Assembly (NCBI GenBank): GCA_945906815.1
Contig: CAMDRT010000015.1
Location: 1,584-65,583 of the forward strand
DNA from: Bordetella parapertussis
GTDB lineage: Bacteria; Pseudomonadota; Gammaproteobacteria; Burkholderiales; SG8-41
Reading direction: 5' to 3'
Length of the DNA: 64,000 nucleotides
Shown: piece after piece, positions 6,603 through 57,024 of the stretch
How positions within the stretch are numbered: position 1 is the stretch's first letter
How the letters are laid out: the number at the start of each line of letters is the position of its first letter
The notes under the pieces: generated by a model
The model's database searches: none
What the model saw: the letters and a program-made list of their open reading frames with translations, nothing else
What the model was told of the DNA's origin: nothing
Made by a program: the position numbers and the translations under genes

Positions 6603-6619
6603 GTGCGCGCTGGCGTGAC

Positions 6620-8096: not shown

Positions 8097-8099
8097 CGT

Positions 8100-26629: not shown

Positions 26630-27562
26630 TCAGCTGTCGAACACTATACCGTTCGCAATATTATTCACTTTGGCAAACTCTGCGCCAGACAGTTTTTTGC
26701 CGTCTTCGCCACGAGCGCGCAGCACTTCTATCGTGCCACCCTGAGTGGTGACACGAAAGCTTTGCTCACCCACTGCGGAAATCTCGCCTATTTTGCCGGC
26801 GACATCCGCAAAACGGCGGGACGGATGCTTGCGTGCATCGAATATCTGCACTTTCTTGCCATTGAGCATGGTCCACGCGCCGGGCGCGGGGTTGCAGGCA
26901 CGAATCAGGTTGTAGACGGAATCCACGTGGCTGGCCCAATGAATACGCGACTCACTCGCGCGGCACCAGCCCTCGTAGCTCGCCTTCGATTCGTCCTGCA
27001 CCGTCTCGCTGTGTTTGCCCGCAAACACCAGATCCGCGGCTTCGAGCATGGCTTTTACGCCCAGCGGAAAAAGATGGTTGAAATAAACATCGCCCAGGGT
27101 GTCATCGGGGCCTATGGCGCATGTTTTTTGCAGCACCACCGGGCCTTCGTCCAGACCTTCATTCGGGCGAAAAATGGTTAATCCGGTTTGCGTGTCGCCG
27201 CGCATGATCGGCCAGTTGATCGACGATGGCCCGCGGTATTTTGGCAGCAGCGACGGGTGATATTGAATCGTGCCCAGACGCGGCAAATGCACAAACGTAT
27301 CCGGCGCGAATTGCAGCACATAGGCCATGATGCCGATGTCCACACTCAAGCTTTTCAGCGCCGCGTGCGCATCCGGTTCGCGCAGCGATTTAAACTGGAA
27401 CACTTTGAGATTTTTTTCCTCGGCAGCAGCGCGCACGGGGTCGGGCCGGGCGCCCGGTTTTTCCGGTGCGCAGAACACGCCGGCGACTTCATCGCCGCGC
27501 GCCAGAAAAGCATCCAGCACTGCTTTGCCAAAATCCTGCTGGCCAATAATTGCGATTTTCAT
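26630..27562 (-). CDS. formyltransferase-family protein (Fmt / 10-formyl-THF dehydrogenase N-terminal hydrolase-like)
   Basis: MKIAIIGQQDFGKAVLDAFLARGDEVAGVFCAPEKPG... resembles the N-terminal formyltransferase fold, with an Fmt_C-like C-terminal half. The start is ATG 27562. The substrate is unknown. Confidence 0.65.
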   Translation of the reverse strand: MKIAIIGQQDFGKAVLDAFLARGDEVAGVFCAPEKPGARPDPVRAAAEEKNLKVFQFKSLREPDAHAALKSLSVDIGIMAYVLQFAPDTFVHLPRLGTIQYHPSLLPKYRGPSSINWPIMRGDTQTGLTIFRPNEGLDEGPVVLQKTCAIGPDDTLGDVYFNHLFPLGVKAMLEAADLVFAGKHSETVQDESKASYEGWCRASESRIHWASHVDSVYNLIRACNPAPGAWTMLNGKKVQIFDARKHPSRRFADVAGKIGEISAVGEQSFRVTTQGGTIEVLRARGEDGKKLSGAEFAKVNNIANGIVFDS

Positions 27563-27571
27563 AGTGTTTGA

Positions 27572-27668
27572 GTGAACGAGTGAACGAGTGAACAAGTGAA
27601 CGAGTCATTTCACGGGGCGCGGTGGAAGGGTTTTACCCGTTCACGCGTTCACCCGTTCACCCGTTCAC
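27572..27668. repeat. inverted array of tandem octamers: 4x GTGAAC(G/A)A facing 4x NCGTTCAC
   Basis: Units lie at 27572-79, 80-87, 88-95 and 96-603, and at 27638-44, 46-52, 54-60 and 62-68, with a strict 8-nt period. The arms are complementary for 7 of 8 nt per unit and the spacer is ~34 nt. The array is intercistronic between frc and the fmt-like gene. Confidence 0.85.
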
Positions 27669-27689: not shown

Positions 27690-28958
27690 TCAAACCTTCT
27701 TCGGTGGCAACGAGAACGCGCCTGCTGACTTCAACTGCGCAACCTTGTCGTCCGCGTAGCCCAGCACTTGCTTTAACACTTCATCGGTATGCTCGCCCAG
27801 CGTGGGCGAACGCTGGATGACTGCCGGTGACGCCGACAACTTGATCGGCATGCCGACGTTCCACCACTTGCCGCGCTGCGGATGATCGAGTTCGACGTAC
27901 ATATCGCGGCCGCGCACATGCTCGTCGGTCGCCAGGTCCGCGGTGGACATAATCGGCCCGCACGGCACATCCAGCGGATTGAGTAGCGCCATGAATTCGC
28001 GCTTGCTGTAGTTCGACGCAAACTGGGTAATCAGCGCCCACATCACCTGCTGATTTTTGCGCCGGTCGCCAATCTTGGCAAAGCGCGGGTCTGTTGCCAG
28101 ATCCGGCAAACCCAGGTCGGGCCCGATGCGTTTGGCAAGGCCGTCCCATACCGCTTCCTGCACCACCACATAAATGTAATCGTTCGGCCCGCCCGGCTTG
28201 CATTGAATGGCGTTGCCCAACTGCCCGCCGCCGGAATCATTGCCCGCGCGCGGCACATCACCCATACCCTGCGCTGTGGGCACGGAATACTCGGACAACG
28301 ACTGGTGCTGGAGCCGCTGATGATCACGCCATTTCACGCGGCACAGATTCATTACCCCGTCCATCATTGCCACTTCGACGTATTGACCTTCACCACTGCG
28401 GTTAGCTTGATGCAGCGCCGCCAACAATCCGATCGCCAGATGCAAGCCTGTGCCGGAGTCGCCTATCTGCGCGCCGGTGACAAACGGCGCGCCTTCGGGA
28501 ACGCCGGTGGTGCTCATCGCGCCACCCATCGCCTGCGCCACGTTTTCGTAGGCTTTGAAATCCGAATACGGGCCGCTGGAACCGAAACCCTTGATCGATC
28601 CCATCACGATCTTCGGGTTAAGTTGGTGGATTTTTTCCCAGGTGAACCCGAAGCGATCGAGCACCCCGGGGCCGAAGTTTTCCATGATGATGTCGCATTT
28701 CATCAGCAAATCGATGAAGACTTGTTTGCCTTCCGGGTGCTTCATGTTCACCGTGATCGAACGCTTGTTGCAATTCAACATGGTGAAATAAAGACTGTCG
28801 GCGTTCGGCACATCGCGCAACTGGCCGCGCGTGGCATCGCCCTGCGGCGGCTCGAACTTGATGACGTCCGCGCCCATCCACGCCAGCAACTGCGAGCAGG
28901 TCGGACCCGCTTGCACGTGCGTCATGTCCAGGATTCGAACACCTTTTAATGCTTCCAT
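27690..28958 (-). CDS. frc: formyl-CoA:oxalate CoA-transferase
   Basis: [36 protein letters not shown]...[12 protein letters not shown]...ENFGPG...[10 protein letters not shown] is collinear with Oxalobacter Frc as I recall it. The start is ATG 28958. Confidence 0.9.
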
Positions 28959-29157
28959 GCTGCTCTCCTGAAATACAGCGGCGGATGAACGATGGTATTG
29001 TTCGTTCCATCCCACCACGTCATTGCGGCGCTCAGCAACGCGTTGAGGCCGTCCGAATAAATAGCGCTAATTGTACAGTGCAGACACGCCGCACCATCCC
29101 CAAACCGTTACCTGCTGCGAGAGGGCGCAACTATAGGTAATGGCCGCCACCCTAGCC

Positions 29158-29173
29158 TTGACCGGAGTCAAGA
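29158..29173. promoter_or_regulatory. Crp/Fnr-type box TTGACCGGAGTCAA (perfect TTGAC-N4-GTCAA palindrome) in the frc / regulator divergent region
   Basis: Seen directly. It lies 71-86 nt upstream of the regulator ATG 29244 and is nearly identical over 16 nt to the box at 29883 (TTGACCGGRRTCAAGA). Confidence 0.55.
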
Positions 29174-29243
29174 TTCCACGCTAAAAATTTACTTAATAAA
29201 CAAATAGTTATAGAATTAAATGCCCTGATTTCAACCTCCCGCC

Positions 29244-29852
29244 ATGACCCAGCTTGCGCTGCACCCCCAGTCCAAAATCATACGCCTGCAATTGCGGCAA
29301 AACCTGGTGCTGACCAACCTGGGCGTGGCGCAATGGAACGAATTTGAACCGTTGCTGGAAATTATCGACTACACCAAGGGCGAAACACTGGAACTACAGG
29401 GCACGCACGCGATGGAGCAGTATTTCGTCATCGATGGCATTTTAAAACGGACGGTCTCCAATGCCCAGGGCAAGGAAATGATTTTGCGCTTTGCCGCGGA
29501 AAGCGACATCGACACCAGTTACGCCGCGTGGCGGCTGAAAATGCCGATGCCCTATTCGATACGCGCGGTAACCAAAGTGCGTGCGGCCAAGCTCTCGATG
29601 CTGCAGTGGGCGGCGTTTCTCGAACGGCATGCCAAAATCAAGGGCGAGTTCGAGCTCGAAGTGATGAAGCTGATGAGCGAAGTCATGGCACACACCATCA
29701 CGCTGCATCTGTTGAATGCGCCGGGACGGGTGCAACGCTTTATGCGCAAACACGCTGATCTGGTCGCACGACTACCCAAGAAAGAACTGGCCTCTTATTT
29801 GAATTTATCACCGGAAACGCTCAGCCGATTGAAGCGGCGCGGGAAGATTTAG
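29244..29852 (+). CDS. Crp/Fnr-family transcriptional regulator (cNMP-binding-like domain plus C-terminal HTH)
   Basis: A 202-aa ORF with beta-roll-like YFVIDGILKRTVSNAQGKEMILRF and a C-terminal HTH, ELASYLNLSPETLSRLKRRG. Confidence 0.75.
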   Translation: MTQLALHPQSKIIRLQLRQNLVLTNLGVAQWNEFEPLLEIIDYTKGETLELQGTHAMEQYFVIDGILKRTVSNAQGKEMILRFAAESDIDTSYAAWRLKMPMPYSIRAVTKVRAAKLSMLQWAAFLERHAKIKGEFELEVMKLMSEVMAHTITLHLLNAPGRVQRFMRKHADLVARLPKKELASYLNLSPETLSRLKRRGKI

Positions 29853-29882
29853 CGCTTTAAATAGAGGCACCCTGCTGCAAAA

Positions 29883-29896
29883 TTGACCGGGATCAA
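29883..29896. promoter_or_regulatory. Crp/Fnr-type box TTGACCGGGATCAA upstream of oxc
   Basis: It fits TTGAC-N4-ATCAA and lies 83-96 nt upstream of the oxc ATG 29979. Confidence 0.55.
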
Positions 29897-29978
29897 GAGT
29901 ACATTTAGCGGCCGCGCCCTATGATACTTCGAGTGAAAAACACGTTCAACACACGGCAAGCAGACGAGGCATCTCACC

Positions 29979-31715
29979 ATGACAACTGACGCACCCTCAC
30001 CCGCACAGACCGACGGATTCCATCTGCTCATCGATGCGCTCAAACTCAACGGCATCGACACCATCTTTGGCCTGCCCGGCATCCCCATCACCGACCTCAC
30101 CCGCATGGCGCAGGCCGAGGGCATACGCATGATTTCTTTCCGCCATGAGCAAAATGCCGGCCACGCCGCTGCCATCGCCGGCTTCCTGACGCAAAAGCCC
30201 GGCATCTGCCTGACGGTATCCGCCCCCGGCTTTCTCAACGGACTTAACGCACTGACCAATGCCACCACCAACTGCTTCCCGATGATCCTCATCAGCGGCT
30301 CCAGCGAGCGCGAGATCGTCGATCTGCAACAGGGCGATTACGAAGAGATGGACCAGTTGGCCATCGCCAAGCCCTTGTGCAAAGCGGCCTTTCGCGTGCT
30401 GCACGCAGAGGACATCGGTGTGGGCGTCGCTCGCGCCATCCGTGCCGCAGTCTCCGGTCGTCCAGGCGGCGTCTACCTCGATCTACCAGCCAAGCTGTTC
30501 GCGCAGAGCATGGATGCAGAAGCCGGCAGAAAATCGCTGATCAAGGTGGTCGATCCCGCGCCGCGCCAGATTCCGGCGCCGGACGCGGTGCAGCGCGCGC
30601 TGGATCTTTTGAAAAACGCCAAGCGTCCGCTGATTGTGCTGGGCAAGGGTGCCGCCTATGCGCAGGCCGACGCGGCGATCCGCGAACTGGTCGAAAAAAC
30701 CGGCATTCCGTACCTGCCGATGTCCATGGCCAAGGGCCTGCTGCCCGACACGCACGAGCAGTCCGCAGCCGCCGCGCGCTCCTATGTGCTGCCTGAAGCA
30801 GACGTAGTGATGCTGATCGGTGCACGCCTGAACTGGCTGCTGTCGCATGGCAAGGGCAGAACCTGGGGCGGCAAATCCCCCAAGGACTGGGGTGGTCAAA
30901 AATACGTCCAGATCGACATTTCGCCGCAGGAGGCAGACAGCAACGTGCGCATCGACGCACCGGTGGTCGGCGACATCGGTTCCTGCGTAGCGGCCATGCT
31001 TAACGGCATTAACGCCTCAGGTGGCAGTTGGCCCAAGCCCTCCGCAGACTGGCTGGGCGCCATAGACCAGCGCAAGAGCACCAACATCGCGAAAATGGCC
31101 GAGACGCTGGCCAAAAATCCCGCGCCGATGAATTACCACAGCGCGCTCAATGTCATGCGCGACATCATCAAAGCCAACCCAGATGCCCTGCTGGTCAACG
31201 AGGGCGCCAACGCACTCGACTTCACGCGCAGCATTGTCGACATGTACCAGCCGCGTAAGCGTCTGGACGTCGGCACCTGGGGCATCATGGGCATCGGTAT
31301 GGGTTTTGCCGTCGCGGCCGCCGTGGTCAGCGGCCAACCGGTGATCGCGGTGGAAGGCGACAGCGCCTTTGGCTTCTCCGGCATGGAAGTCGAGACCATC
31401 TGCCGCTACAACCTGCCGGTGTGCGTGGTGGTCTTCAATAACAACGGCGTCTACCGCGGCACCGACGTCAATCCCAGCGGCGGCACCGACGTGGCGCCCA
31501 CGGTGTTCGTCAAAAATGCGCGTTACGACAAGCTGATGGAGGCTTTCGGCGGTGTGGGTGTACATGCCACCACCCCGGCGGAGTTGCGCAAGGCCGTGGA
31601 AGAGGCTGTCCGATCGCGCAAGCCTACGCTGATCAATGCAGTCATCGATGAAACCGCTGGCACTGAGAGCGGCCGCATCACCAGCCTGAATCCGACCGCC
31701 GCGAAAAAGAAATAA
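29979..31715 (+). CDS. oxc: oxalyl-CoA decarboxylase (ThDP-dependent)
   Basis: [27 protein letters not shown]...[12 protein letters not shown]...[19 protein letters not shown]...[22 protein letters not shown] matches OXC closely. Confidence 0.92.
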
Positions 31716-31737
31716 ACATCAACACCTCACTGCAATG

Positions 31738-31773
31738 ACGCAAAGGCAAGCGTCTTTGCGGTTGCGGTGTTTT
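31738..31773 (+). terminator. weak terminator-like hairpin after oxc
   Basis: CGCAAAG-8 nt-CTTTGCG, then GTTGCGGTGTTTTT. The stem is short and the T-run is distal. Confidence 0.35.
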
Positions 31774-31790
31774 TGCTAGTGGCTTAGTGG

Positions 31791-33272
31791 TTATTTGCCC
31801 CGCAGCTTGTTCACCAGCGGCCAGAACAGCATGATCAGGCCCAGCGTCATGATGCTGCCCACCAAGCCGTTGGTGAAAAACACGCTCAGATTCCCCTGCG
31901 AAATCAGCATCGACTGACGGAAAGAATCTTCGGCGCGATCCCCCAGCACCAGCGCCAGCACCATCGGCGCCATCGGGTAATCAAGTTTCTTGAACACATA
32001 GCCGATCACGCCGAACAGCATCATGAACCAGATGTCGAGCATGGCATTGTGTACCGTGAAGGCGCCGATCGCGCAGATCACAATAATCAGCGGCGCCACT
32101 ATCGAAAACGGAATACGCAATATCGCTGCGAACAAGGGCACGCAGGTGAGCACTATAATCAGCCCCGCCAGATTCCCCAGATACATGCTGGCGATCAGTC
32201 CCCACACGAATTCTTTTTTCTCCACGAACAACAGCGGGCCCGGCTGCAACCCCCAGATCAACAGGCCGCCCAGCAACACCGCGGCCGTGGGCGAACCGGG
32301 AATACCGAGCGACAACATCGGCAGCAACGCCGAGGTGCCTGCAGCATGTGCCGCGGTTTCCGGCGCAATCACGCCTTCGATCTGACCCGTGCCGAATTTT
32401 TCGCCGTCGCGCGAGAAGCGTTTGGCGATGCCATAACTCATGAACGATGCGGGCGTAGCCCCTCCCGGTGTAATACCCATCCAGCAACCGACCAGACAAC
32501 TACGCACCGAGGTCATCCAGTATTTAGGCAGTTTTTTCCACGTTTGTATCACGATCTTGAAATCGATACGCGCTTGGTTGCCCTGGAACGATAAGCCCTC
32601 CTCCATCGACAACAAAATTTCGCCAATACCGAACAGCCCGATCACCGCGATCAGGAAGTCGAATCCGCGCATCAGCTCATGAAAGCCGAAATTGAGCCGC
32701 AGTTGGCCCGTCATGGTATCCATACCGACTGCGGCAAGCGTAAAGCCCAGCATCATTGCCGACAGCGTTTTCCACGGTGAGCCTTTGCCCATGCCAATGA
32801 AGCTGCAGAATGTCAGGAAATACACCGAGAAAAATTCCGGCGGCCCGAACCGCAATGCGAATTTCGCCACGGCCGGCGCGAGGAAGGTAATCATCACCAC
32901 CGCCACAAAAGCGCCGATGAACGACGAGGTAAACGCTGCCGTCAGCGCCTCGCCGGCCCTGCCCTGCTGCGCCATCGGATAGCCGTCGAAGGTGGTCGCC
33001 ACCGACCACGGCTCACCGGGGATGTTGAACAGAATCGAGGTGATCGCGCCGCCGAACAATGCGCCCCAGTAAATGCACGACAGCATGATGATGGCCGAGG
33101 TCGGCGGCATGGTGAACGTAAGCGGCAGCAGAATCGCGATGCCGTTGGCGCCGCCGAGTCCCGGCAACACGCCGATGATCACGCCCAAGATGACACCGAC
33201 GAACATCAGCATCAAGTTGAATGGCGACAGTGCCACCGAAAATCCATGAAACAGCGCGGTGATTTCCTCCAT
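31791..33272 (-). CDS. tctA: tripartite tricarboxylate transporter large permease
   Basis: A 493-aa polytopic ORF with a TctA-family pattern (GVLPGLGGANGIAILLPLTF, PGSPTAAVLLGGL). Confidence 0.85.
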   Translation of the reverse strand: MEEITALFHGFSVALSPFNLMLMFVGVILGVIIGVLPGLGGANGIAILLPLTFTMPPTSAIIMLSCIYWGALFGGAITSILFNIPGEPWSVATTFDGYPMAQQGRAGEALTAAFTSSFIGAFVAVVMITFLAPAVAKFALRFGPPEFFSVYFLTFCSFIGMGKGSPWKTLSAMMLGFTLAAVGMDTMTGQLRLNFGFHELMRGFDFLIAVIGLFGIGEILLSMEEGLSFQGNQARIDFKIVIQTWKKLPKYWMTSVRSCLVGCWMGITPGGATPASFMSYGIAKRFSRDGEKFGTGQIEGVIAPETAAHAAGTSALLPMLSLGIPGSPTAAVLLGGLLIWGLQPGPLLFVEKKEFVWGLIASMYLGNLAGLIIVLTCVPLFAAILRIPFSIVAPLIIVICAIGAFTVHNAMLDIWFMMLFGVIGYVFKKLDYPMAPMVLALVLGDRAEDSFRQSMLISQGNLSVFFTNGLVGSIMTLGLIMLFWPLVNKLRGK

Positions 33273-33302
33273 TTGTGTACTCTCTTGCGCGTCAGGAAAT
33301 CA

Positions 33303-33830
33303 TCAGTAACCGAGCACGCTCAACGGGTCGTAAAGCGTGCCTTTGTGCAGCGGCACCTGGAACCAAATCTCAAACATGACGAATACGCTAATGCTCACTG
33401 CAATGCCCGACAGCACAGCTTTCCACCACGCATATTTACCCAGCCACACCATGAATACTGCCACGTAGACGGCCGACGCTAAATAGATGCCAAACCACTG
33501 AATCACCAGCACGTAGACCAATGCCGGCCCCAGTACCGAGAACACCAGCTTGAGTTGTCCGCGCTCGACAAAACTTGCGCGCGCCTTCGCGGAACGGTCG
33601 CGTAGCGCCTGCCCCAGCGTCACCAGACTGGAGATCACGACTAGGAGACCGATGTAGAACGGGAAATAACCGGCTTGCGGGCCGTCGTCACCCCAGCGGG
33701 CGCCTAGGCGAGCGCTTTCGCCAGCCACCACCGCGCCAAAAACGAGTATGACCGCCGCCACGATGATTTCCATCGTGCGCATGCTCACCACAGGCCGCTG
33801 ATCAGCCTGCTTATCTTGATCTGGAGTCAT
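33303..33830 (-). CDS. tctB: tripartite tricarboxylate transporter small subunit
   Basis: A 175-aa, 4-TM ORF between tctC and tctA. The assignment rests on position and size. Confidence 0.6.
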   Translation of the reverse strand: MTPDQDKQADQRPVVSMRTMEIIVAAVILVFGAVVAGESARLGARWGDDGPQAGYFPFYIGLLVVISSLVTLGQALRDRSAKARASFVERGQLKLVFSVLGPALVYVLVIQWFGIYLASAVYVAVFMVWLGKYAWWKAVLSGIAVSISVFVMFEIWFQVPLHKGTLYDPLSVLGY

Positions 33831-33878
33831 TCAAAAAAAGCGGGGCTCATCCGCCCCGCTGATGGTGTTGGATTCACA

Positions 33879-34901
33879 TCAAGGCTTCGCGAGAAAGCCG
33901 GCATCCTTCATCAAACCGCGGTGCAGCGCTTCGTTTTTCTCCACCCACGACGCGTATTCCCGGCCCGCCATGAAAGTCTGATTGAACGCGCCGTCCTCCA
34001 TGAACCGTTTCCATTCCGCAGTTTCGCGCAAGCGCTTGAACAGACCCACATAGTATTCGACCTGCTCCGGCTTGACCCCGCCTGGCATGAAAATACCGCG
34101 CAGCATCAGGTAATCGGTGGGTACGCCTGCTTCCTTGCAAGTCGGAATGTCGTGCCACGACATTTTGTCGGTGACCTTGTTTTTGTACGGCATGCGCTGG
34201 CTGTCAAACACACACAGCGGGCGCAACCGCCCGGCGCGCCATTGCGCCACCGCCTCGATTGGATTGTTGACGGTCGAGTGGACATGGTTGCCCACGAGTT
34301 GCACCGCCACGTCGCCACCGCCCTTGAACGGCACGTAGATAAGCTTGATACCGGTCGCTTTCTCGAGGCCCACGGTCAGTATCTGGTCTTCCTGTTTAGA
34401 GCCCGTGCCGCCCATCTTGAATCGCTTCTGCGTATCCGCCGTGACCGCCTTCGCCGCCACCAGGTACTCCTGCGCGGACTTATACGGCGAATCGGCATTT
34501 ACCCACAATACAAACTGGTCGAGCGCCAGCATCGCAACCGGGGTGAGGTCCTTCCAGTTGAAAGGTACGCCGGTTGCGAGCGGCGTAGTAAACAAATTGG
34601 AGAGGGTAATGATGATCCGGTGCGGGTCGCCTTTCACTTCCTTCACCGACAGAAAGCCTTCCGCGCCAGCGCCACCTGAGCGGTTAACGACGACCACCGC
34701 ATGCTTCATCAAATTGTTTTTGGCGATGATGCCCTGGATCAGGCGCGCCATCTGGTCGGCACCGCCGCCGGTGCCAGCCGGCACCACGAACTCTACGTTC
34801 TTGGTGGGCTCCCACGCTGCCGCTTGTGTCAACGACGCCGCCCCTGCCACACTCATTGCGAGCGTCGCGGCCAGTACGGATTTGAATTTTGAACGCATCA
34901 T
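33879..34901 (-). CDS. tctC: Bug/TctC-family periplasmic substrate-binding protein
   Basis: It has the signal peptide MMRSKFKSVLAATLAMSVAGAASLTQAAA, a VPAGTGGGADQMARL motif, and GGAGGA upstream of ATG 34901. Confidence 0.8.
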   Translation of the reverse strand: MMRSKFKSVLAATLAMSVAGAASLTQAAAWEPTKNVEFVVPAGTGGGADQMARLIQGIIAKNNLMKHAVVVVNRSGGAGAEGFLSVKEVKGDPHRIIITLSNLFTTPLATGVPFNWKDLTPVAMLALDQFVLWVNADSPYKSAQEYLVAAKAVTADTQKRFKMGGTGSKQEDQILTVGLEKATGIKLIYVPFKGGGDVAVQLVGNHVHSTVNNPIEAVAQWRAGRLRPLCVFDSQRMPYKNKVTDKMSWHDIPTCKEAGVPTDYLMLRGIFMPGGVKPEQVEYYVGLFKRLRETAEWKRFMEDGAFNQTFMAGREYASWVEKNEALHRGLMKDAGFLAKP

Positions 34902-35027
34902 GATTCCTCCCCCCAAGGTTACCGCGATTGACACAAACACCCATAAACCAAACAACCCGCTCATGTGCCACAGTTCTTAGAATTTTCGCGGCGCGCGTAA
35001 TGATGCGCACTTCCCCAACCAAAAACA

Positions 35028-35041
35028 TTGACCGCCATCAA
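35028..35041. promoter_or_regulatory. Crp/Fnr-type box TTGACCGCCATCAA upstream of tctCBA
   Basis: It fits TTGAC-N4-ATCAA and lies 127-140 nt upstream of the tctC ATG 34901. Confidence 0.5.
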
Positions 35042-35322
35042 TTTTCCGGATTACGCTTGCATTCTCATTGTATCCATAATTATCTGTAAAAACAAATAGT
35101 TATGGCGAGGGCTGGAATCGTGGCGCCACACCGCCTGACACGCACCGCACACCCTGTAGATCCCTACCCTGCAGCACGCGCGATGACCGAAGCATACCTG
35201 CGTAAAAAATAGCGCTGTAACGCACAGCTTGCAAATAGCACCAGAGAAATCAGGCGACGCACCATTTAGGCGCAACAGCGCAGTCTTGCGCACTGACCTG
35301 GGGCGTTATCCGGATCAAAACT

Positions 35323-42774: not shown

Positions 42775-44468
42775 AAATCACCCGCCAGGCCTATGCCGAA
42801 ATGTTCGGCCCCACCACCGGTGATCGTGTGCGCCTCGCCGATACCGAACTGTGGATCGAGGTCGAGAAGGACTACACCCTTTACGGCGAAGAAGTGAAAT
42901 TCGGTGGCGGCAAGGTCATCCGTGACGGCATGGGGCAGAGCCAGTTGGTTTCCGCGAAAGTTGCCGACACCGTGATCACCAACGCCTTGATCGTGGATCA
43001 CTGGGGCATCGTCAAGGCCGACATCGGCATCAAGAACGGACGCCTCTGGAAAATCGGCAAAGCCGGCAATCCCGACATCCAGCCCGGCATCACCATCCCC
43101 ATCGGCGCGGGCACGGAAATCATCGCGGGTGAAGGCATGATCGTTACCGCCGGCGGCATCGACACCCACATCCATTTTATTTGCCCGCAGCAAATTGAAG
43201 AGGCCTTGATGTCGGGCGTGACCACCATGATCGGCGGCGGCACCGGGCCCGCCACGGGCACCTTCGCCACCACCTGCACGCCGGGGCCGTGGCATATGCA
43301 TGCCATGCTGGCCGCGGCGGATGCGTTTCCGATGAACCTGGGTTTTTTCGGCAAAGGCAATGCCAGCAGGCCCGCGCCGCTCAAGGAGCAAATCGAAGCC
43401 GGCGCCATTGGCCTGAAACTGCATGAAGACTGGGGCACCACGCCGGCCGCTATCGACAACTGCCTGGCGGTGGCCGACAAAATGGATGTGCAGGTGGCGA
43501 TCCACACCGATACCCTGAACGAATCGGGGTTTGTGGAAACCTCGGTGGCAGCGATGAAAGGCCGCGCAATCTGCACCTTTCATACCGAGGGTGCGGGCGG
43601 CGGCCATGCGCCTGACATCATCAAGGTGTGCGGTGAACCCAACGTGATGCCGTCGTCTACCAACCCGACCATGCCGTACACGGTCAACACCATCGCCGAA
43701 CATCTCGACATGTTGATGGTGTGCCATCACCTGGACCCGGCGATCGCCGAGGATGTGGCGTTTGCCGAATCGCGCATTCGCAAGGAAACCATCGCCGCCG
43801 AGGACATCCTGCATGATCTGGGCGCGTTTTCGATGATGTCTTCCGATTCACAGGCGATGGGGCGCGTGGGCGAAGTCATCATCCGCACCTGGCAGACCGC
43901 GCACAAAATGAAAATCCAGCGCGGCAGCTTGAAGGGCGACCCGCAAGAAAATGATAACGCGCGGGTGAAGCGCTTCATCGCAAAATACACGATTAATCCT
44001 GCGATAGCGCACGGCGTATCGCACGTCGTTGGCTCCATCGCGGAAGGAAAACTGGCTGATCTGGTGCTATGGAAACCGGCATTCTTTGGCGTAAAGCCGT
44101 CGCTGATCATCAAAGGCGGCATGATCGCGGCGGCGGCGATGGGGGATCCCAATGCCTCGATCCCGACGCCGCAGCCGGTGCATTACCGGCCGATGTTCGG
44201 CAGCTTCGGCAAAGCGCTGCGCACCTCGCTCACGTTTGTGTCGAAGGCGGCGCTGAAAAATCCGGCGATCGCAGCGCTGGGTTTATCCAAGCCGCTGGAG
44301 GCAATACGCAACGTTCGAAAAATCGGCAAGAAAGACATGGTGCTCAACGACTGGCTGCCGAAAATCGAGGTTGATGCCGAGACCTATGAGGTGCGCGCCG
44401 ACGGTGAATTGCTGGTGTGTGAGCCCGCCACAGTACTGCCGATGGCGCAACGTTATTTTCTGTTCTGA
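42771..44468 (+). CDS. ureC: urease alpha subunit
   Basis: [20 protein letters not shown] and MVCHHLD are nickel-site motifs. Confidence 0.95.
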
Positions 44469-46566: not shown

Positions 46567-47880
46567 CTACTTCATATTCGGCAGGACCCAAATCAGCATG
46601 GCGAATATGTAGCAGATGACAGAGCAGACGAGTGTAAACGGAACACTCCACGCTAAAAACTCTCGCAGCGACACCTTGCGCCCTTCTTCCTTCTCACCCA
46701 GGCTCAGCGCGACGTAGAGTGCGGGGGCACCAGCGATGGTCAGGTTGCTGCCGAGCGTGCCCGCCCACAACACCATCCACCACAGCGGCCACGGATCGAC
46801 GCCCGCTTTCGCCAGATCTTTGATGGTGTGCAGGAACGTCAATATATAGGCGTCGTGTTCAACCAACCCTACGATCGGCACGGTAATCCAGTACAGCAGG
46901 GTCGCGCCCAGTGCATAGTTTTCGAGGAAAATTGGTTTCAATGCGGCGGCCAGCTTGTCGAGTATATGGCTTTTCTCCAACCCGCCCACCAGCGCGAATA
47001 GCGCGATATAAAAGAAAATCGCGCGCCAGTCGAGTTCCTGCAGGACTTCCTCGAATTTGGTGGCTTTTACCCGGTCGCCCAGCAGCGTCAGCACCAGCAC
47101 CAGGGACAGCGCCCCCGTCATCGCGATAAAGCCCAACGACACGCCGATGTATTCGCGCGCCGACATCGCAATCACGGTGCCGAGGAACCAGCCCACGACA
47201 ACGGTCGCGAACAGCGGGTTTTCGATCTTGGCTTCAACGCCGAGCGAGGCCAAATCGGTAACGCGCTTATGGCCGCGAAAACCGTACCAATACATGAAAG
47301 CCAGAGTGATGAGGAAAGTCACCATCAGGATCGGGAACGACGACGGACGGCCCTTATGCCAGATGAAGTCGAAGAACTCCGCGCCCGCCACACTGTGCAG
47401 CATCTGCGGCGGCAGGTCGCCAATGATCAGCGCTGTGCCCATGAAGTTGGCGCCAAAGCCGATCATCAGCACCACCGGCACCGCCGGCAATTTCAGCGCG
47501 CGGCACAACGGCAGCGCCACCGGCGCCATCATCAGAATGGTGACGACGTTATCGACGAACATCGAGATGAAGCCGGCGAGGAAGGTCAGGATGATGACCA
47601 GGAAGCCCGGCCGGCCGCCGGAGAGCTTCAACGCCTGTATCGACAGCCAACTGGGCACACCGGATTTGCCGAAGTAACCGGCGATGATCCAGATGCCGAG
47701 CAGAATCGCCATCACGTTCCAGTCCACGTATTTGAAGGCATCGGTATCGGTCATCACGCCAGCCCAGCACATGATGGAAACACCGATCAGCGCGGCGAGC
47801 GTGCTGTCGATCCAGTTAGTGATAACCACCAGAATAGTGAGCGCGAACAGGATCAGGGTAAACCACTGCATAGGTTCCAT
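46567..47880 (-). CDS. ArsB/NhaD-superfamily (CitMHS-like) ion permease
   Basis: A 437-aa polytopic ORF with FISMFVDNVVTILMMAP and SNLTIAGAPA motifs of the ion transporter superfamily. The substrate is not assignable. Confidence 0.6.
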   Translation of the reverse strand: MEPMQWFTLILFALTILVVITNWIDSTLAALIGVSIMCWAGVMTDTDAFKYVDWNVMAILLGIWIIAGYFGKSGVPSWLSIQALKLSGGRPGFLVIILTFLAGFISMFVDNVVTILMMAPVALPLCRALKLPAVPVVLMIGFGANFMGTALIIGDLPPQMLHSVAGAEFFDFIWHKGRPSSFPILMVTFLITLAFMYWYGFRGHKRVTDLASLGVEAKIENPLFATVVVGWFLGTVIAMSAREYIGVSLGFIAMTGALSLVLVLTLLGDRVKATKFEEVLQELDWRAIFFYIALFALVGGLEKSHILDKLAAALKPIFLENYALGATLLYWITVPIVGLVEHDAYILTFLHTIKDLAKAGVDPWPLWWMVLWAGTLGSNLTIAGAPALYVALSLGEKEEGRKVSLREFLAWSVPFTLVCSVICYIFAMLIWVLPNMK

Positions 47881-47926
47881 AATTTTCCTTTAAAAACAAA
47901 TATTTATATAGAATTGGTCTGTACGG

Positions 47927-49261
47927 TTATTTCGCGGGCTGGGTCACCGCCGGCGCGGACGCTGCGCCCGCCTTAACTTTCGGCGTCGGATGCCAACCAC
48001 TGACTGCCAACATCACCGCGAAGCCAACGATATACGCCAGCGTCACATGCCATCCAAATCGCAGCCACAGGCCCACGGAGCGCGCTTCGGGGAACATGTT
48101 GGCTAGCGCCACGCCCGCCGATGAGCCGAACCAGATCATCGATCCGCCAAAGCCCACGCAGTAAGCCAGCATACCCCAGTCGTAACCATCCTGCTTCAAT
48201 GCCAAAGCGGTGAGCGGAATGTTGTCGAACACCGCCGACACAAAGCCCAGCCCGAACGCGGTTTGCCATGAGGCGAGGGGCAGTTTTTCCACCGGCATCA
48301 GCGACGCGCACAGTATCAGCGACAGCAGGAAAATGCTGCCTTTGAACGCTTCGGGCAGCAGGCTCCAATCGGGTTTGCGGATGGGGATGGCAAGAAAAAT
48401 CGCAATCCAAACCGCCACCCCAATAAATGGGAACTTGTCGCTCATGTGCGCGAACGTGCTGTTAGCGAGCACGTTGCCGGTGATGGCAAACGCCAGGATC
48501 AGCACCACGATGCCCACACGCGCGCCGTCGATGGTAATGATCGCTGACACATCCTTCACTATGGGCGAATGCTTGTGCTGCTGCATCGCCGCCGGAATGC
48601 CGCAGATGACCAGCGCCACACTGGCTGCAACGTAGGCGTTAATAACGGCCAGCGGACTCACGCCGTCGATCCACATCATGGTGGTGGTGGTGTCGCCCAC
48701 CACGCTGCCGGAGCCGCCCGCATTCGAGGCGGCGACAATGGCTGCGAGATAACCGATATGCACCTTGCCGCGAAACACCGTCATGGCTATGGTGCCGCCG
48801 ATCATCGCCCCCGCGATGTTGTCGAGAAAACTCGACAGCACGAAAATCATCACCAGCAGCACAAAGCCGCCCTTCCAGTCTCCGGGCAGGAACTTCGGCA
48901 GCCACGCCGGGATCTTGCTTTCTTCGAAATGCTTGGAGAGGATGGCGAAGCCCAGGAGCAAGCCCAGTAGATTGGTGAGAATCACCCACTCATGCCCCAT
49001 GTGCGCACCGAAGCCCGCGATGCCGGCACCCGTTTTGAAGCCGGTGAAAATGAGCTTATAGGAGACTATAGTCGCCAGCCCGATCAGCGCCACGCGCAGC
49101 GTGTGATGGTGGAACAGCGCGACGCCGAGCAGCGTACACGCAAAAAAAACGAACTCGAGGGGTATGCCAAATAGCGCCGGGCCTTCGCCCGCGGCGTGCG
49201 CCAGCGCCGGCAAAGCCGTCAGCGCGGCACCCGAACAAAAAGCGTGAACTGAAAATCGCAT
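47927..49261 (-). CDS. NhaD-like / ArsB-NhaD-superfamily permease with signal peptide
   Basis: A 444-aa ORF with ...HEWVILTNLLGLLLGFAILSKHFEESKIPAWLPKFLP...FLDNIAGAMIGG, which resembles NhaD-type antiporters from memory. Confidence 0.6.
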   Translation of the reverse strand: MRFSVHAFCSGAALTALPALAHAAGEGPALFGIPLEFVFFACTLLGVALFHHHTLRVALIGLATIVSYKLIFTGFKTGAGIAGFGAHMGHEWVILTNLLGLLLGFAILSKHFEESKIPAWLPKFLPGDWKGGFVLLVMIFVLSSFLDNIAGAMIGGTIAMTVFRGKVHIGYLAAIVAASNAGGSGSVVGDTTTTMMWIDGVSPLAVINAYVAASVALVICGIPAAMQQHKHSPIVKDVSAIITIDGARVGIVVLILAFAITGNVLANSTFAHMSDKFPFIGVAVWIAIFLAIPIRKPDWSLLPEAFKGSIFLLSLILCASLMPVEKLPLASWQTAFGLGFVSAVFDNIPLTALALKQDGYDWGMLAYCVGFGGSMIWFGSSAGVALANMFPEARSVGLWLRFGWHVTLAYIVGFAVMLAVSGWHPTPKVKAGAASAPAVTQPAK

Positions 49262-49663: not shown

Positions 49664-51337
49664 CTAAAACAGCCCCACTACCTTGCCATCGTCCGTAAGA
49701 TCGATTTTCTCCGCCGAAGGAACCTTCGGCAACCCCGGCATAGTCATGATATCGCCGCAGATCATCACCACGAATTCCGCCCCCGCCGACAGCCGCACTT
49801 CACGCACGTTGACGCTGTGACCCGCCGGCGCGCCGCGCACGTTGGCGTCGGTCGAAAACGACGACTGCGTTTTCGCCACGCACACCGGATAGTGGCCGTA
49901 GCCGCCTTCCTGCAATTCCTTGATGCGGTTGCGCACTTTGGAGTCCGCCGTGATATCGCCGGCACCATACACCTTGGTGGCGATCTTCTTCATCTTGTCC
50001 CACAAGGTGTCGCTATCTTCATACACAAACGTTGGGCTGGATTTTTGCTCGCACAGTTCAACCACGATGTGCGCCAGATTCGCCGCGCCCTTGCCACCTT
50101 CCGCCCAATGGTTGGCGACCACCACTTTCACGCCCAGTTTCTCGACGCGCTCGGTGAGCAGTTTCATCTCGGCCGCGGTATCCGCGGTAAAGCGGTTGAT
50201 CGACACCACGCACGGAATGTTGTAAACATTTTTGACGTTGTTGACGTGACGCTCGAGATTGACTATGCCTTTTTCCAGCGCGGCGACGTTTTCCACGCTC
50301 AACGCATCCTTCGCCACACCGCCGTGATGTTTGAGCGCGCGCACCGTGGCCACGATCACCGCCGCCGCTGGTTTCAACCCTGCCTTGCGGCATTTGATGT
50401 CGAGGAATTTTTCCGCGCCCAGATCAGCACCAAAGCCCGCCTCGGTCACCACGTATTCTGCAAGTTTCAACGCGGTTTGGGTCGCAATCACGGTGTTGCA
50501 GCCATGCGCGATATTGGCAAACGGACCGCCGTGAATGAACGCCGGATTGTTTTCCAGCGTTTGCACCAGATTCGGCGCGAGCTGGTCTTTGAGCAGCACG
50601 GTCATCGCGCCGTGTGCTTTGAGATCACTGGCACGCAGCGCCTTGCCTTCGCGGGTGTAACCGAACACGATATTGCCCAGACGGTTCTTCAAGTCCTTGA
50701 GTGAAGTGGCGAGACAGAAAATCGCCATCACTTCGGAGGCCACCACGATGTCGAAACCATCTTCACGCGGGAAGCCGTTGGCGGTGCCGCCCAGCGACAC
50801 CACGATGTCACGCAGCGCGCGGTCGTTCATGTCCATCACACGCTTCCAGGTGATGCGGCGCGGATCGATGCCCAGCGCGTTGCCATGCGAAATGTGATTG
50901 TCGATCATCGCCGACAGCAGGTTGTTGGCGAGGCCAATCGCGCCAAAGTCGCCGGTGAAATGCAGGTTGATGTCTTCCATCGGCACCACTTGCGCGTAAC
51001 CGCCGCCTGCCGCACCCCCTTTGACACCAAACACCGGCCCCAACGACGGTTCACGCAGGCAGATGATCGCTTTTTTGCCGATGTGGTTGAGCGCATCACC
51101 CAAGCCGACGGTGGTGGTGGTCTTGCCTTCTCCGGCGGGCGTGGGACTCATGGCAGTGACCAGAATCAGCTTGCCGTCTTTTTTGTCTTTCAGCGAAGCT
51201 ACATATTCGAGCGACACCTTGGTCTTGTAGTGGCCATACGGCACCAGATGCTCGTCGGGAATGCCCAGCTGCTCGGCGATTTTGTTGACCCGCAACATCT
51301 TGCCAGCTTGTGCAATTTCAATATCGGACAATGCCAT
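49664..51337 (-). CDS. fhs: formate--tetrahydrofolate ligase
   Basis: [15 protein letters not shown] and [18 protein letters not shown] are FTHFS signatures. Confidence 0.92.
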
Positions 51338-51370
51338 TTCTTTTTCTCCTGAAAACTAAGTTCTAAAAAT

Positions 51371-54172
51371 TCAAATCGCAGCCATCGCCTGCCCGCCGCC
51401 GTAGCTCGACACCGGCGTCAACTCGCCGCCTTTCATGACCTTAACCGCGCAATATTTGAACTCCGGTATCTTGCCCACCGGATCCAGCGCTGGGTTGGTC
51501 AGCAAATTCGCCGCCGCTTCGTAAAAACAGAACGGAATGAATACCGCGCCGCGCGGCGTGCCGTCGTCGGCGCGCGCGTACAGCGACACTATGCCGCGGC
51601 GCGAAGCGACGCTGATCACCTCGCCCGGCTGCGCACCCAGCGCGTCCAGATCGAGCGGGTGTATCAGCACGGTCGCTTCCGGTTCGATGGCGTCGAGCAC
51701 CGACGCACGCCGCGTCATCGCGCCGGTGTGCCAATGTTCGAGTTGCCGGCCGGTGATCAGCACGAACGGATATTCCGTATCCGGCCGCTCGTTGGCGGGA
51801 ATGATATCCGCCGGAACGAATCGCGCTCGCCCTGTCGGCGTAGGAAATTTATCAATAAAAACAATGGCCTGCCCAGGATCCCCTTCCTTCTCGCAAGGAT
51901 AGGTGACACTGCTTTCGCGCTCCAGCCGCTCGTAAGTAATGCCGGCGATGCTGTTCATGCCCAGGCGCATTTCGTTGAACACATCGGCCGGGCCGCTGTA
52001 ATTCCAGTCGCACCCCAGGCGACGCGCGAGTTCCTGAATAATCCACAGATCCGGCTTGGCCTCGCCCGGCGCGTCTAGCGCTTTGCGGCCGAGCTGCACC
52101 ATGCGATCGGTGTTGGTGACCGTGCCGTCTTTTTCCGGCCACGCGGTGGCGGGCAAAATCACATCGGCGTAGTAACAGGTTTCGGTGAGGAAAATTTCCT
52201 GCACCACCAGCATGTCGAGCTTGGCCAGCGCCTCGCGCGCATGGTGCGCGTCGGGGTCGGACATCGCCGGATTTTCACCCATGATGTACATGCCGTTGAT
52301 GTTGCCGTCGAGCGTGGCGTGAATGATTTCGACCACCGTCAGCCCCGGCTTCGGGTCCAGCTTGGCGCCCCACAATTTTTCAAAGCGCGCGTGCGCTTCA
52401 GGATTATCTACGCGCTGATAGTCCGGAAACACCATCGGTATCAGCCCGGAGTCGGATGCGCCCTGCACATTGTTTTGCCCGCGCAACGGATGCAGCCCGG
52501 AGCCGGGTTTACCGATCTGCCCGGTCATCAGCGTCAGCGCAATCAGACAACGTGCATTGTCGGTGCCGTGCACGTGCTGGGAAATGCCCATACCCCACAG
52601 GATCATCGAGCCTTTGGAGGTGGCGTACAGCCGGGCGACTTCCTTGATGGTCTCGGCGGGTATGCCGCACAGCGGCGCCATGGCTTCGGGGCTGTAGCCT
52701 TCGACATTCTTCCTTAAATCTTCGTAGCCTATGGTGCGCGAGGCGATGAAAGCTTCGTCAACCAGCCCTTCATGCACGATGGTGTGCATCATGGCGTTCA
52801 ACAACGCCACATCGGTGTCGGGCTTGAATTGCAGATAGTGGGTGGCGTGACGCGATAATTCCGAACGGCGCGGATCGGCATAAATGAATTTCGCGCCTTT
52901 TTTCACCGCGTTTTTAATCCACGTTGCCGCCACCGGATGGTTGGAAATCGGGTTCGCGCCGATCAGGAATATGACCTCGGCAACGCCCACATCGCTCACC
53001 TGATTCGATACCGCACCGGACGCCACGCCTTCCATCAGAGCCGCCACCGACGACGCATGGCACAGCCGCGTGCAATGATCGACGTTGTTGCTGCCAAAGC
53101 CGGTACGCACCAGCTTCTGGAACAAATACGCTTCTTCGTTGCTGCCCTTGGCCGAGCCAAAACCAGCGAGCGCCGTTTTGCCTTTGTGATCGCGGATTTC
53201 TTTCAGCTTGTCGGCCGCGAAATCCAGCGCTTCTTCCCACGTTGCCTCACGAAAGTACTCGAGCGGATGCGCCGGGTCCATGGTGAAGTCGGCGTGCTTG
53301 GGCACCCCCGGCTTACGGATCAACGGCTGGGTCAGTCTTTGTTTATGGCTGACATAATCAAATCCGTAGCGACCCTTCACGCACAGCCGATTGTGGTTGG
53401 AGGGGCCGTCGCGCCCATCCACACTGATGATTTTGTTGTCCTTGATGTTGTAGGTCAGCTGGCAGCCGACGCCGCAGTACGGGCACACCGAGTGCACCTG
53501 TTTGTCCGGTTTGATCAGACCGGCTTCGCGCGCGGGCATCAGTGCGCCGGTCGGGCACGCTTGCACACACTCGCCGCACGCCACACAGGTGGAGTCACCC
53601 ATGGCATCGTCGATATCGAACACGATTTTCGAATGTTCGCCGCGAAACGCGTAACCGATGACGTCGTTGACCTGTTCCTCACGACAAGCACGCACGCAGC
53701 GCGTGCACTGTATGCACGAATCGAGATTGACCGCGATGCCGTGATGCGACAGATCAGCCTGCGGCTGATGGCGTGCCTCGAAGCGCGGCTTGCCCACCTG
53801 CAGTTTGCCCGCCCATAGATCCAGCTCGGATTGCCGCGTGTGGCGCTTTTCCGGCATGTCAGAGAGCAGCAGTTCCAGCACCATCTTTTGTGATTTGACT
53901 GCGCGCTCACTGTCGGTGGTGACTTCCATGCCCTGGGCCGGCGCGCGGCAGCACGAGGCCGCGAGCACGCGCTCGCCTTTGACCTCGACCACACAGGCTC
54001 GGCAATTGCCGTCGGGGCGCATGCCTTCCTTGTAGCAAAGATGCGGGATCTCCACGCCATAACGCTTCGCGGTTTGAATGAGGGTTTCGTTAGCGTCGCC
54101 CACCACATCTTTGCCATTGAGCTTGAACTCGATGGGCATGGCGTTTAGTTCTTCTTTGGTGATTGCGGTCAT
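51371..54172 (-). CDS. fdsA: NAD-dependent formate dehydrogenase alpha subunit (2Fe-2S / 4Fe-4S / Mo-bisPGD)
   Basis: A 933-aa ORF. A NuoG-like N-terminus (CYKEGMRPDGNCRACVVEV, CIQCTRCVRAC, CVACGECVQACP, CPYCGVGC) is followed by a molybdopterin oxidoreductase domain. There is no in-frame stop, so this is a Cys-type rather than Sec-type enzyme. Confidence 0.88.
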   Translation of the reverse strand: MTAITKEELNAMPIEFKLNGKDVVGDANETLIQTAKRYGVEIPHLCYKEGMRPDGNCRACVVEVKGERVLAASCCRAPAQGMEVTTDSERAVKSQKMVLELLLSDMPEKRHTRQSELDLWAGKLQVGKPRFEARHQPQADLSHHGIAVNLDSCIQCTRCVRACREEQVNDVIGYAFRGEHSKIVFDIDDAMGDSTCVACGECVQACPTGALMPAREAGLIKPDKQVHSVCPYCGVGCQLTYNIKDNKIISVDGRDGPSNHNRLCVKGRYGFDYVSHKQRLTQPLIRKPGVPKHADFTMDPAHPLEYFREATWEEALDFAADKLKEIRDHKGKTALAGFGSAKGSNEEAYLFQKLVRTGFGSNNVDHCTRLCHASSVAALMEGVASGAVSNQVSDVGVAEVIFLIGANPISNHPVAATWIKNAVKKGAKFIYADPRRSELSRHATHYLQFKPDTDVALLNAMMHTIVHEGLVDEAFIASRTIGYEDLRKNVEGYSPEAMAPLCGIPAETIKEVARLYATSKGSMILWGMGISQHVHGTDNARCLIALTLMTGQIGKPGSGLHPLRGQNNVQGASDSGLIPMVFPDYQRVDNPEAHARFEKLWGAKLDPKPGLTVVEIIHATLDGNINGMYIMGENPAMSDPDAHHAREALAKLDMLVVQEIFLTETCYYADVILPATAWPEKDGTVTNTDRMVQLGRKALDAPGEAKPDLWIIQELARRLGCDWNYSGPADVFNEMRLGMNSIAGITYERLERESSVTYPCEKEGDPGQAIVFIDKFPTPTGRARFVPADIIPANERPDTEYPFVLITGRQLEHWHTGAMTRRASVLDAIEPEATVLIHPLDLDALGAQPGEVISVASRRGIVSLYARADDGTPRGAVFIPFCFYEAAANLLTNPALDPVGKIPEFKYCAVKVMKGGELTPVSSYGGGQAMAAI

Positions 54173-54184
54173 TGCGTTCCTTCA

Positions 54185-56004: not shown

Positions 56005-56143
56005 CGCACACCCTCCATGCCCATCACCTACGAGCTGTCAGCGCTCCGGGTCACAACGCAGCGGGTCCATCGGGCGCGCCGTTTTGCCGTTATGCCGGGG
56101 AGGGGTGCCGCTGCTGCCAGAATAGCGCGGGTTCGTTAGCTGC

Positions 56144-57022: not shown

Positions 57023-57024
57023 TT

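Follow-up and report, generated by a model that had tools for sequence, protein, structure and literature searches.

A palindromic box upstream of oxalate and formate genes and a co-encoded Crp/Fnr-fold protein as its putative class II activator

A palindromic box precedes four transcription units for oxalate and formate metabolism in a 64,000-nucleotide (nt) stretch of DNA from a freshwater betaproteobacterium, on contig CAMDRT010000015.1 (assembly GCA_945906815.1, filed as Bordetella parapertussis; here called the window), and a protein of 202 amino acids (aa) with the Crp/Fnr fold is encoded between two of the boxes. We believe, with a probability of roughly 0.75, that the four boxes are sites for a dimer of this protein and that the protein, here called the regulator, is a dedicated class II activator of an oxalate/formate regulon. 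The comparison of related loci described below strongly supports the box as a real, selected element that accompanies the regulator. From the same sequences we infer that the regulator, rather than another Crp/Fnr paralog, binds the boxes and that binding activates transcription. The signal would be oxalate or an intermediate of its breakdown (oxalyl-coenzyme A, formyl-coenzyme A or formate) held in the beta-roll domain of the protein.

The boxes, their promoters and their conservation

The boxes are few, and all of them are intergenic. We scanned the window with a strict pattern, TTGAC-N4-RTCAA, and a looser one, TTGA-N6-TCAA. The four strict sites, which carry no strand, and the -10 elements predicted next to them are:

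29158 to 29171: box 1, TTGACCGGAGTCAA, in the divergent region between frc and the regulator gene; centre 41.5 nt before the predicted frc transcription start
29883 to 29896: box 2, TTGACCGGGATCAA, 83-96 nt before the oxc ATG (29979); centre about 42.5 nt before the predicted oxc start
35028 to 35041: box 3, TTGACCGCCATCAA, 127-140 nt before the tctC ATG (34901); centre 41.5 nt before the predicted start
58276 to 58289: box 4, TTGACTGTGGTCAA; centre 41.5 nt before the predicted sucC transcription start
29130 to 29135, minus strand: predicted frc -10, TATAGT, starting 23 nt after box 1
29920 to 29925, plus strand: predicted oxc -10, TATGAT, starting 24 nt after box 2
35000 to 35005, minus strand: predicted, weak tctC -10, CATCAT, starting 23 nt after box 3
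58248 to 58253, minus strand: predicted -10 of the sucC operon, TAAATT, starting 23 nt after box 4

The strict pattern gave six strand-matches at these four places only (29158, 29883, 35028 and 58276), compared to an expectation of 0.18 from shuffled sequences, and none of 100 shuffles gave six. The looser pattern gave five matches against 0.75 expected, the additional one being a coding match at 63077. All four strict sites are intergenic, although a crude gene map puts the window at about 90% coding and about 10% non-coding. Other matches to TTGAC-N4-GTCAA with up to two mismatches are coding and have no intact TCAA or TTGA half-site; the exception is a weak intergenic match at 867 with two mismatches. 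An Rfam scan of the box-containing intergenic regions found no known RNA family. A preliminary description of this DNA had given the sequences and coordinates of three boxes, the position of the box at 58276, the distances from boxes 2 and 3 to their ATGs and a 16-nt near-identity of boxes 1 and 2; all were correct on recheck, and the 16 nt that boxes 1 and 2 share are TTGACCGGRRTCAAGA. Read towards tctC, box 3 is TTGATGGCGGTCAA, and the tctC ATG at 34901 has a GGAGG ribosome-binding site.

By the predicted transcription starts, the boxes lie at the position of a class II activator site. In class II activation by CRP and FNR, the activator site is centred near -41.5 and overlaps or replaces the -35 element. 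With the -10 hexamers placed at -12 to -7 and transcription starts predicted from them, the box centres fall at -41.5 or -42.5. Every one of the 77 distinct promoters on the frc/oxc side has a TAnnnT hexamer that begins 23 or 24 nt beyond the box, and so do all 18 promoters of oxc in the gene order of the window, all seven fhs promoters and all four orthologous sucC promoters described below. The -10 consensus was CCTAtAGTT on the frc/oxc side and CCCCCTATGAT before oxc in the window order; with flanks anchored on the box, the conserved hexamer took the forms CCTATAGT, CCTATGAT or TATAGT. In the tctC promoters of 42 loci the element at the same offset is a weaker nAnGAT that keeps the key A and T positions. 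Outside the box and the -10 there is almost no conserved information in the intergenic DNA of related loci, and on the far side of each box we found no element at a fixed spacing.

We found no -35 hexamer in the box promoters, and a scan for the sigma70 consensus gave no complete promoter for frc or oxc. The TTGACC half-site of the box was considered as a -35 element and rejected, since it would need a 30-nt spacer before the conserved -10. The predicted layout, with a site near -41.5, no -35 and a -10 about 29.5-30.5 nt from the box centre, is thus that of an activator-dependent class II promoter: it is the conserved -10 at 23-24 nt, together with the missing -35, that argues for a class II activator position. 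The preliminary description had called the boxes operators, a word that does not suit them; by these spacings they resemble activator sites.

The box is kept across species and through a rearrangement of the genes. We compared 80 loci at the species level (one genome per GTDB species) with regulator orthologs that were 65-98% identical. Most are from metagenome-assembled genomes of Burkholderiales, with isolates of Pelomicrobium, Noviherbaspirillum, Duganella and Massilia. The genes occur in two orders, fmt-frc / regulator-oxc / tctABC, as in the window, and fmt-frc-oxc / regulator / tctABC-fhs, and in both of them, in almost every one of the 80 loci, frc, oxc, tctCBA and fhs remain the neighbours of the regulator. 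In 79 of the 80 loci a TTGA-N6-TCAA is found upstream of the regulator at a distance of no more than 300 nt. The pattern also lies before oxc in all 18 loci of the window order that reach oxc, before tctC in 42 loci, whatever the gene on the far side, and before fhs in seven. Of 170 occurrences in 805 kilobases (kb), 146 belong to these four classes (regulator, oxc, tctC and fhs). Sequence comparison bears out the preliminary description in connecting frc, oxc and tctCBA with the regulator through a common box, and the sucC operon belongs with them; the box accompanies the regulator in 79 of 80 loci and in both gene orders.

The consensus site is a perfect 14-base-pair (bp) palindrome, TTGACCGCGGTCAA, with a conserved C at position 5, a conserved G at position 10 and a GC-rich centre. 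When boxes are oriented towards their targets, the promoter-proximal half, GGTCAA, is almost invariant, with G10 in 95%; of the distal halves, 79% read TTGAC and 21% TTGAT.

The box before sucC is also conserved. Four orthologous sucCD-fdh-fhs operons (L208-L211; SucC 80-88% identical) have the gene order of the window, and each has exactly one box in its 17 kb, 82-109 nt before sucC. These orthologs carry CTGTAATAGATTCG, and their -10, TAGATT, begins at an offset of 23 or 24. The preliminary description had noted this box as one before sucC. The box is real, but its target is a sucCD-formate dehydrogenase-fhs operon and not a plain tricarboxylic acid (TCA) cycle operon.

In three Duganella and Massilia loci (L072, L075 and L076) we observed a second perfect box, TTGACCGCGGTCAA, 17-51 nt 3' of the regulator gene (at about 6617-8259). 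In L072 it is followed by two open reading frames (ORFs) of 166 and 339 aa without a Pfam family. These ORFs are candidates for additional members of the regulon.

Autoregulation was not supported. The preliminary description had proposed it, but the conserved -10 at box 1 faces frc (or oxc), and the regulator gene has a sigma70-like promoter of its own:

29188 to 29216, plus strand: candidate sigma70 promoter of the regulator gene, TTTACT-17 nt-TAGAAT, beginning 17 nt after box 1

This promoter is not class II-spaced from box 1, and its TAGAAT recurs in 13 close relatives only. On the regulator side of box 1 no spacing is conserved across loci. We rejected autoregulation at class II or class I spacing, the centre of box 1 being near -58.5 of the predicted regulator promoter.

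The spacer of this candidate promoter holds a copy of a second repeated intergenic motif, AAACAAATAGTTAT, which is preceded by an AT-rich ATAATT..TAA stretch:

29198 to 29211, plus strand: AAACAAATAGTTAT motif, 40-42 nt after the start of box 1
35090 to 35103, plus strand: AAACAAATAGTTAT motif
7334 to 7347, minus strand: AAACAAATAGTTAT motif
9293 (minus strand), 44969 (plus strand) and 47894 (plus strand): near-copies

With up to two mismatches the window holds six matches, all intergenic, against 0.08 expected. The copy near box 1 is kept in the closest loci of the window type and is absent from rearranged loci, and the orientation of the motif relative to the nearest gene start is inconsistent.

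The regulator protein

The regulator belongs to the Crp/Fnr superfamily by its fold and is neither an FNR, having no cysteines, nor a CRP, having no contacts for cyclic AMP (cAMP).

29244 to 29852, plus strand: regulator, 202 aa, Crp/Fnr fold (Pfam, structure model and Foldseek), with a helix-only C-terminal end, ...SPETLSRLKRRGKI

The sensor domain matched Pfam PF00027 (cNMP_binding) at 34.5 bits, above the cut-off of 27.5. HTH_Crp_2 matched in part (profile positions 18-42 of 70) at 19.4 bits, below its cut-off of 27. A structure model from an alignment of 35 sequences had a mean predicted local distance difference test score (pLDDT) of 94.4 and a predicted template modelling score (pTM) of 0.89; it replaced a model from 18 close orthologs that had a pLDDT of 70.7 and poor Foldseek matches. 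With Foldseek, the model matched GlxR, DNA-bound CRP of M. tuberculosis and FNR at template modelling (TM) scores of 0.78-0.83. These results agree with the preliminary description, which had placed a Crp/Fnr-family regulator at 29244-29852.

In the model, a beta-roll (the N-terminal, cNMP-binding-like sensor domain) spans residues 39-118, a helix at 130-156 aligns with the C-helix, the dimer interface, of Crp/Fnr structures, and helices 179-185 and 190-199 form a helix-turn-helix. There is no beta strand past residue 118, and the protein stops seven residues after the motif E-T-L-S-R; the DNA-binding end as modelled is therefore all-helical, and the "wing" is missing. The recognition helix, E191-T-L-S194-R195, is invariant in 18 orthologs. 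Its E--SR may be the FNR pattern that reads TTGA, equivalent to Glu209, Ser212 and Arg213, in an alignment made by eye.

The protein is unlikely to sense the signals of FNR or CRP. It has no cysteine, nor does any of the 18 aligned orthologs, so that oxygen sensing by an FNR-type [4Fe-4S] cluster is unlikely, and with it redox sensing of the FNR kind; the preliminary description had suggested an oxalate-responsive or redox-responsive regulon. The residues that align by HMMER with the CRP contacts Glu72, Arg82 and Ser83 (E. coli numbering) are Ser, Ile and Pro, with Met in place of Ile in the protein of the window; with these contacts replaced, cAMP sensing is unlikely as well.

Homologs of the regulator number in the thousands, and the nearest of them share its length of about 202 aa. 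Its close family comprises few members, with 42 clusters (50% clustering, E <= 1e-30) among 1.84 billion representatives. A plasmid collection yielded no close homolog, only short Crp-like genes, 25-33% identical, from Bacteroidota and Clostridia.

Loci without the regulator and alternative explanations

The box was absent from oxc loci that lack the regulator. We found no TTGA-N6-TCAA in 110 kb around oxc at seven loci on chromids and plasmids (two of Cupriavidus and one each of Caballeronia, Paraburkholderia, Azospirillum, Methylobacterium and Paracoccus), which had no regulator in the stretches examined. In the Azospirillum (L085) and Paracoccus (L087) loci, a GntR-family gene lies directly before oxc; these two loci hold formate dehydrogenase or sucCD-like genes and no box. 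The GntR gene beside oxc in these Alphaproteobacteria looks like a non-orthologous replacement of the oxalate regulator.

A scan for the promoter motif alone mostly led back to oxalate and formate genes. We searched metagenomes with the DNA pattern TTGACYGNGGTCAA-N23/24-TATRRT, and at least 123 matches were found in at least 120 loci. Among the matches listed, 93 lie directly upstream of, and are oriented to, oxc (64), frc or a frc paralog (16) or fhs (13); 12 are at contig ends, so that these 93 are out of 111 assessable. For 64 of the matches listed, the locus also contains the regulator gene. The pattern, itself derived from these same promoters, was thus not equally frequent before unrelated genes. 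A metagenome scan with the protein P0124 alone, aimed at the context of distant homologs, found no encoding contig. A canonical FNR box was sought as a contrast; one candidate, TTGATAGACATCAA at 11750 in L042, precedes TerC- and UspA-like ORFs, a context too unclear, and was not used.

Several points weigh against a dedicated activator. The 80 loci were gathered by way of the regulator, which biases the counts of co-occurrence, and the scan pattern shares its origin with the promoters it recovers. A further 18 of the scan matches listed stand before other genes; uspA, hemA and a cytochrome c gene, typical targets of FNR, are among these. The TTGA-N6-TCAA core is common to the global regulators FNR, FixK and Dnr, and cross-recognition by a paralog is possible. 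By sequence, the DNA-binding end of the regulator matches only the Protein Data Bank (PDB) entry 3dn7, and not FNR or CRP, which is why the E--SR argument rests on reading by eye. All promoter positions are predictions from -10 hexamers, and the tctC promoter, with its weak CATCAT, is the weakest of the four.

The boxes could be ordinary FNR or Anr sites through which a global FNR induces the genes at low oxygen, with the local protein doing something else or modulating the response. Both the core and the placement at -41.5 are those of class II FNR promoters, and the scan matches before uspA, hemA and cytochrome c genes are in keeping with this. However, the sites have C5, G10 and a GC-rich centre in place of the TTGAT-N4-ATCAA of FNR; 79 of the 80 loci with the local regulator have the box, and it is missing from the oxc stretches examined in Cupriavidus, Caballeronia, Paraburkholderia, Azospirillum, Methylobacterium and Paracoccus, where no regulator is encoded; and the promoters hold no second conserved motif that could be the local regulator's own site. 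We consider control by a global FNR quite improbable. The local protein might instead be a repressor on a true operator, occluding the promoter until an effector releases it. A site over the -35 region could block RNA polymerase, some Crp/Fnr proteins do repress, and the word operator in the preliminary description implies repression. However, promoters with no recognizable -35 should be weak without an activator, and a strict box/-10 spacing of 23-24 nt in about 100 independent promoters is what contacts with RNA polymerase on one face of the helix need, not simple occlusion; repression is unlikely.

The comparative data effectively refute the view that the boxes arose by chance as palindromes, or are remnants, and play no part in regulation. 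Such motifs are short, and they were first found by eye in intergenic DNA only, but six strand-matches were seen in the window against 0.18 expected, the boxes are kept in otherwise unconserved intergenic DNA among 65-98% related species and in two gene orders, their spacing to the -10 is fixed, and the motif-only scan was enriched for oxc, frc and fhs. Weighing these alternatives, we favor dedicated class II activation by the local regulator.

The putative regulon and related systems

The box promoters head genes for oxalate uptake and breakdown and for formate handling, which are listed here together with urtA.

26630 to 27562, minus strand: fmt-like formyltransferase gene (Pfam Formyl_trans_N and Formyl_trans_C), downstream of frc
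27690 to 28961, minus strand: frc, formyl-coenzyme A (CoA) transferase (NCBIfam TIGR03253/NF003809, 560-575 bits, above cut-off)
29979 to 31715, plus strand: oxc, oxalyl-CoA decarboxylase (NCBIfam NF006721, 1010 bits)
31791 to 34901, minus strand: tctC-tctB-tctA, tripartite tricarboxylate-type transporter (TTT) operon (Pfam TctC, TctB and TctA)
35380 onwards, plus strand: urtA, urea transporter (NCBIfam)
49664 to 58194, minus strand: sucC-sucD-(NuoE/F-like formate dehydrogenase subunit)-formate dehydrogenase alpha-fhs (NCBIfam and Pfam)

Profile matches back the gene names frc, oxc, Crp/Fnr-type regulator and TctC/B/A that the preliminary description had used. Both frc and oxc score above the NCBIfam equivalog cut-offs and make up the gene set for type II (CoA-dependent) oxalate breakdown, with a box before each. 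The fmt-like gene, directly 3' of frc in nearly all related loci with a close frc ortholog, probably forms one transcription unit with it. The tctCBA operon is linked to the regulator in most related loci and is a probable candidate for the oxalate uptake system. Box 4 heads a formate-handling operon, in which sucC starts at 58194 on the minus strand and fhs encodes formate-tetrahydrofolate ligase; an oxalate regulon fits it better than a TCA role.

We propose that a regulator dimer loaded with oxalate or a pathway intermediate would bind TTGACCGCGGTCAA-type sites at -41.5 and recruit RNA polymerase to the four promoters without a -35. The units activated would be frc with the fmt-like gene, oxc, tctCBA and sucCD-formate dehydrogenase-fhs. 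TctCBA would take up oxalate, and Frc and Oxc would form and decarboxylate oxalyl-CoA. The sucCD paralog would supply the CoA donor, formate dehydrogenase would oxidize formate, and Fhs would bring formate into tetrahydrofolate metabolism. Work of the Quayle era reportedly described priming by succinyl-CoA.

Several observations bear on the genes of these units. The sucCD pair (56144-58194, minus strand) is named succinate-CoA ligase by NCBIfam, with a close score for malate-CoA ligase. Genes like sucCD adjoin oxc and frc in Paracoccus (L087) and Cupriavidus (L081) replicons without the regulator, which suggests a conserved role in oxalate metabolism, perhaps the supply of the CoA donor. The presence of both the fmt-like gene and fhs hints at a possible undescribed link of formyl-CoA or formate to the tetrahydrofolate pool. 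On the same strand 3' of fhs (46567-49261, minus strand) lie genes for a 444-aa protein without a Pfam family and a CitMHS-family transporter, which may be further members of the fhs transcription unit or of the regulon.

Long inverted repeats are present at 27572-27668, in the gap between frc and the fmt-like gene, and at 54185-54319, between two formate dehydrogenase genes, both inside operons that the boxes would control. Their arms consist of about four tandem 8-nt units, GTGAACNN, with nine matches against none expected. For the repeat at 27572-27668, folding gives a stem about 33 bp long, at -58 kcal/mol and with z = -7.6. Among the fetched loci, an element of the GTGAACNN type was seen at the frc/fmt junction of L001, L045 and the distant L036 only. 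The hairpin may be an element like repetitive extragenic palindromes, one that stabilizes mRNA or a processing element. Elsewhere, in the urease cluster, 42920-43203 (minus strand) is an antisense match at Rfam gathering level (105 bits) to the 5' ureB small RNA (RF02514).

The regulator shares features with FNR and differs from it. FNR of E. coli binds TTGAT-N4-ATCAA centred at -41.5 in class II promoters, and three N-terminal cysteines and a central one ligate its [4Fe-4S] cluster. The regulator has the same fold (TM about 0.78 to A. fischeri FNR) and box promoters with a TTGA-N6-TCAA core near -41.5 and no -35, and its recognition helix, read by eye, may be of the E--SR type. In contrast to FNR, it has no cysteine, only 202 aa and a helix-only DNA-binding end, its sites have C5/G10 and a GC-rich centre where those of FNR have T5/A10, and its regulon would be small, local and catabolic whereas that of FNR is global.

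The proposed logic of the regulator most resembles that of pathway-dedicated Crp/Fnr activators such as CprK. CprK of Desulfitobacterium is a substrate-sensing activator of the Crp/Fnr family that acts on the cpr halorespiration operons through "dehaloboxes." The two would have in common a pathway-dedicated Crp/Fnr gene within a catabolic cluster, several neighbouring promoters, a palindrome of the family type at the class II position and a pathway substrate as the presumed ligand. They differ in the box (TTAAT-N4-ACTAA for CprK), in the ligand (a chlorophenol) and in phylum and pathway; CprK also has a normal winged DNA-binding domain and redox-sensitive cysteines, and we saw no sequence relationship between the two closer than the family level.

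The best sequence match among solved structures was 3dn7 (E 1.7e-11, residues 33-199), a "cyclic nucleotide binding regulatory protein" of 194 aa whose molecule name gives no function. Like the regulator, it is short and ends in ...LASYLG.TPE.LS..RK, a form and ending also found in short Crp/Fnr-like proteins of Bacteroidota and Clostridia. The identity is only about 25-30%, and the recognition helix of 3dn7 reads E-Y-L-S-E where that of the regulator reads E-T-L-S-R.

Functional counterparts from unrelated protein families are the GntR regulators beside oxc in Azospirillum and Paracoccus and the E. coli system in which EvgA controls yfdXWUVE. The latter is an acid-resistance circuit (PMC13409138). 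According to a 2024 review, how frc and oxc are regulated is understudied, with knowledge limited to a few models (PMC13409138), and in another paper oxalate appears only among the carbon sources on which anaerobic growth was tested (PMC3759415). In full-text literature we found nothing relevant on a bacterial regulator that responds to oxalate, on FNR boxes before frc or oxc, or on oxalate transport by a TTT system. Our results point to a switch dedicated to the use of oxalate by bacteria that has so far not been described.

A more far-reaching proposal, for and against which we find the odds about even, is that bacterial oxalotrophy has here its first dedicated master regulator, which would be a wing-less Crp/Fnr protein of minimal size whose beta-roll pocket directly senses oxalate or an intermediate, either a CoA-thioester or formate. 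It would switch on uptake (with the TTT-family transporter as the oxalate importer), oxalyl-CoA decarboxylation, CoA recycling by the sucCD paralog, formate oxidation, and the entry of formate into tetrahydrofolate metabolism through fhs, possibly helped by the Fmt-like enzyme, and it would assign a function to the short Crp-like proteins of the 3dn7 type, a large and uncharacterised class.

The oxalate-carbonate pathway, for which frc and oxc are the marker genes, is driven by bacteria of soil and fresh water that turn over oxalate. A defined regulator, box and regulon would make the regulation of oxalotrophy testable in cultured Duganella, Massilia, Noviherbaspirillum and Pelomicrobium. Partners of unknown role, namely the TTT transporter, the sucCD paralog, the Fmt-like enzyme and the 444-aa protein, could be annotated on the basis of the regulon, and the regulator could serve as a protein part for an oxalate biosensor. 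It would also open a first way into the function of the short Crp-like proteins that lack a wing.

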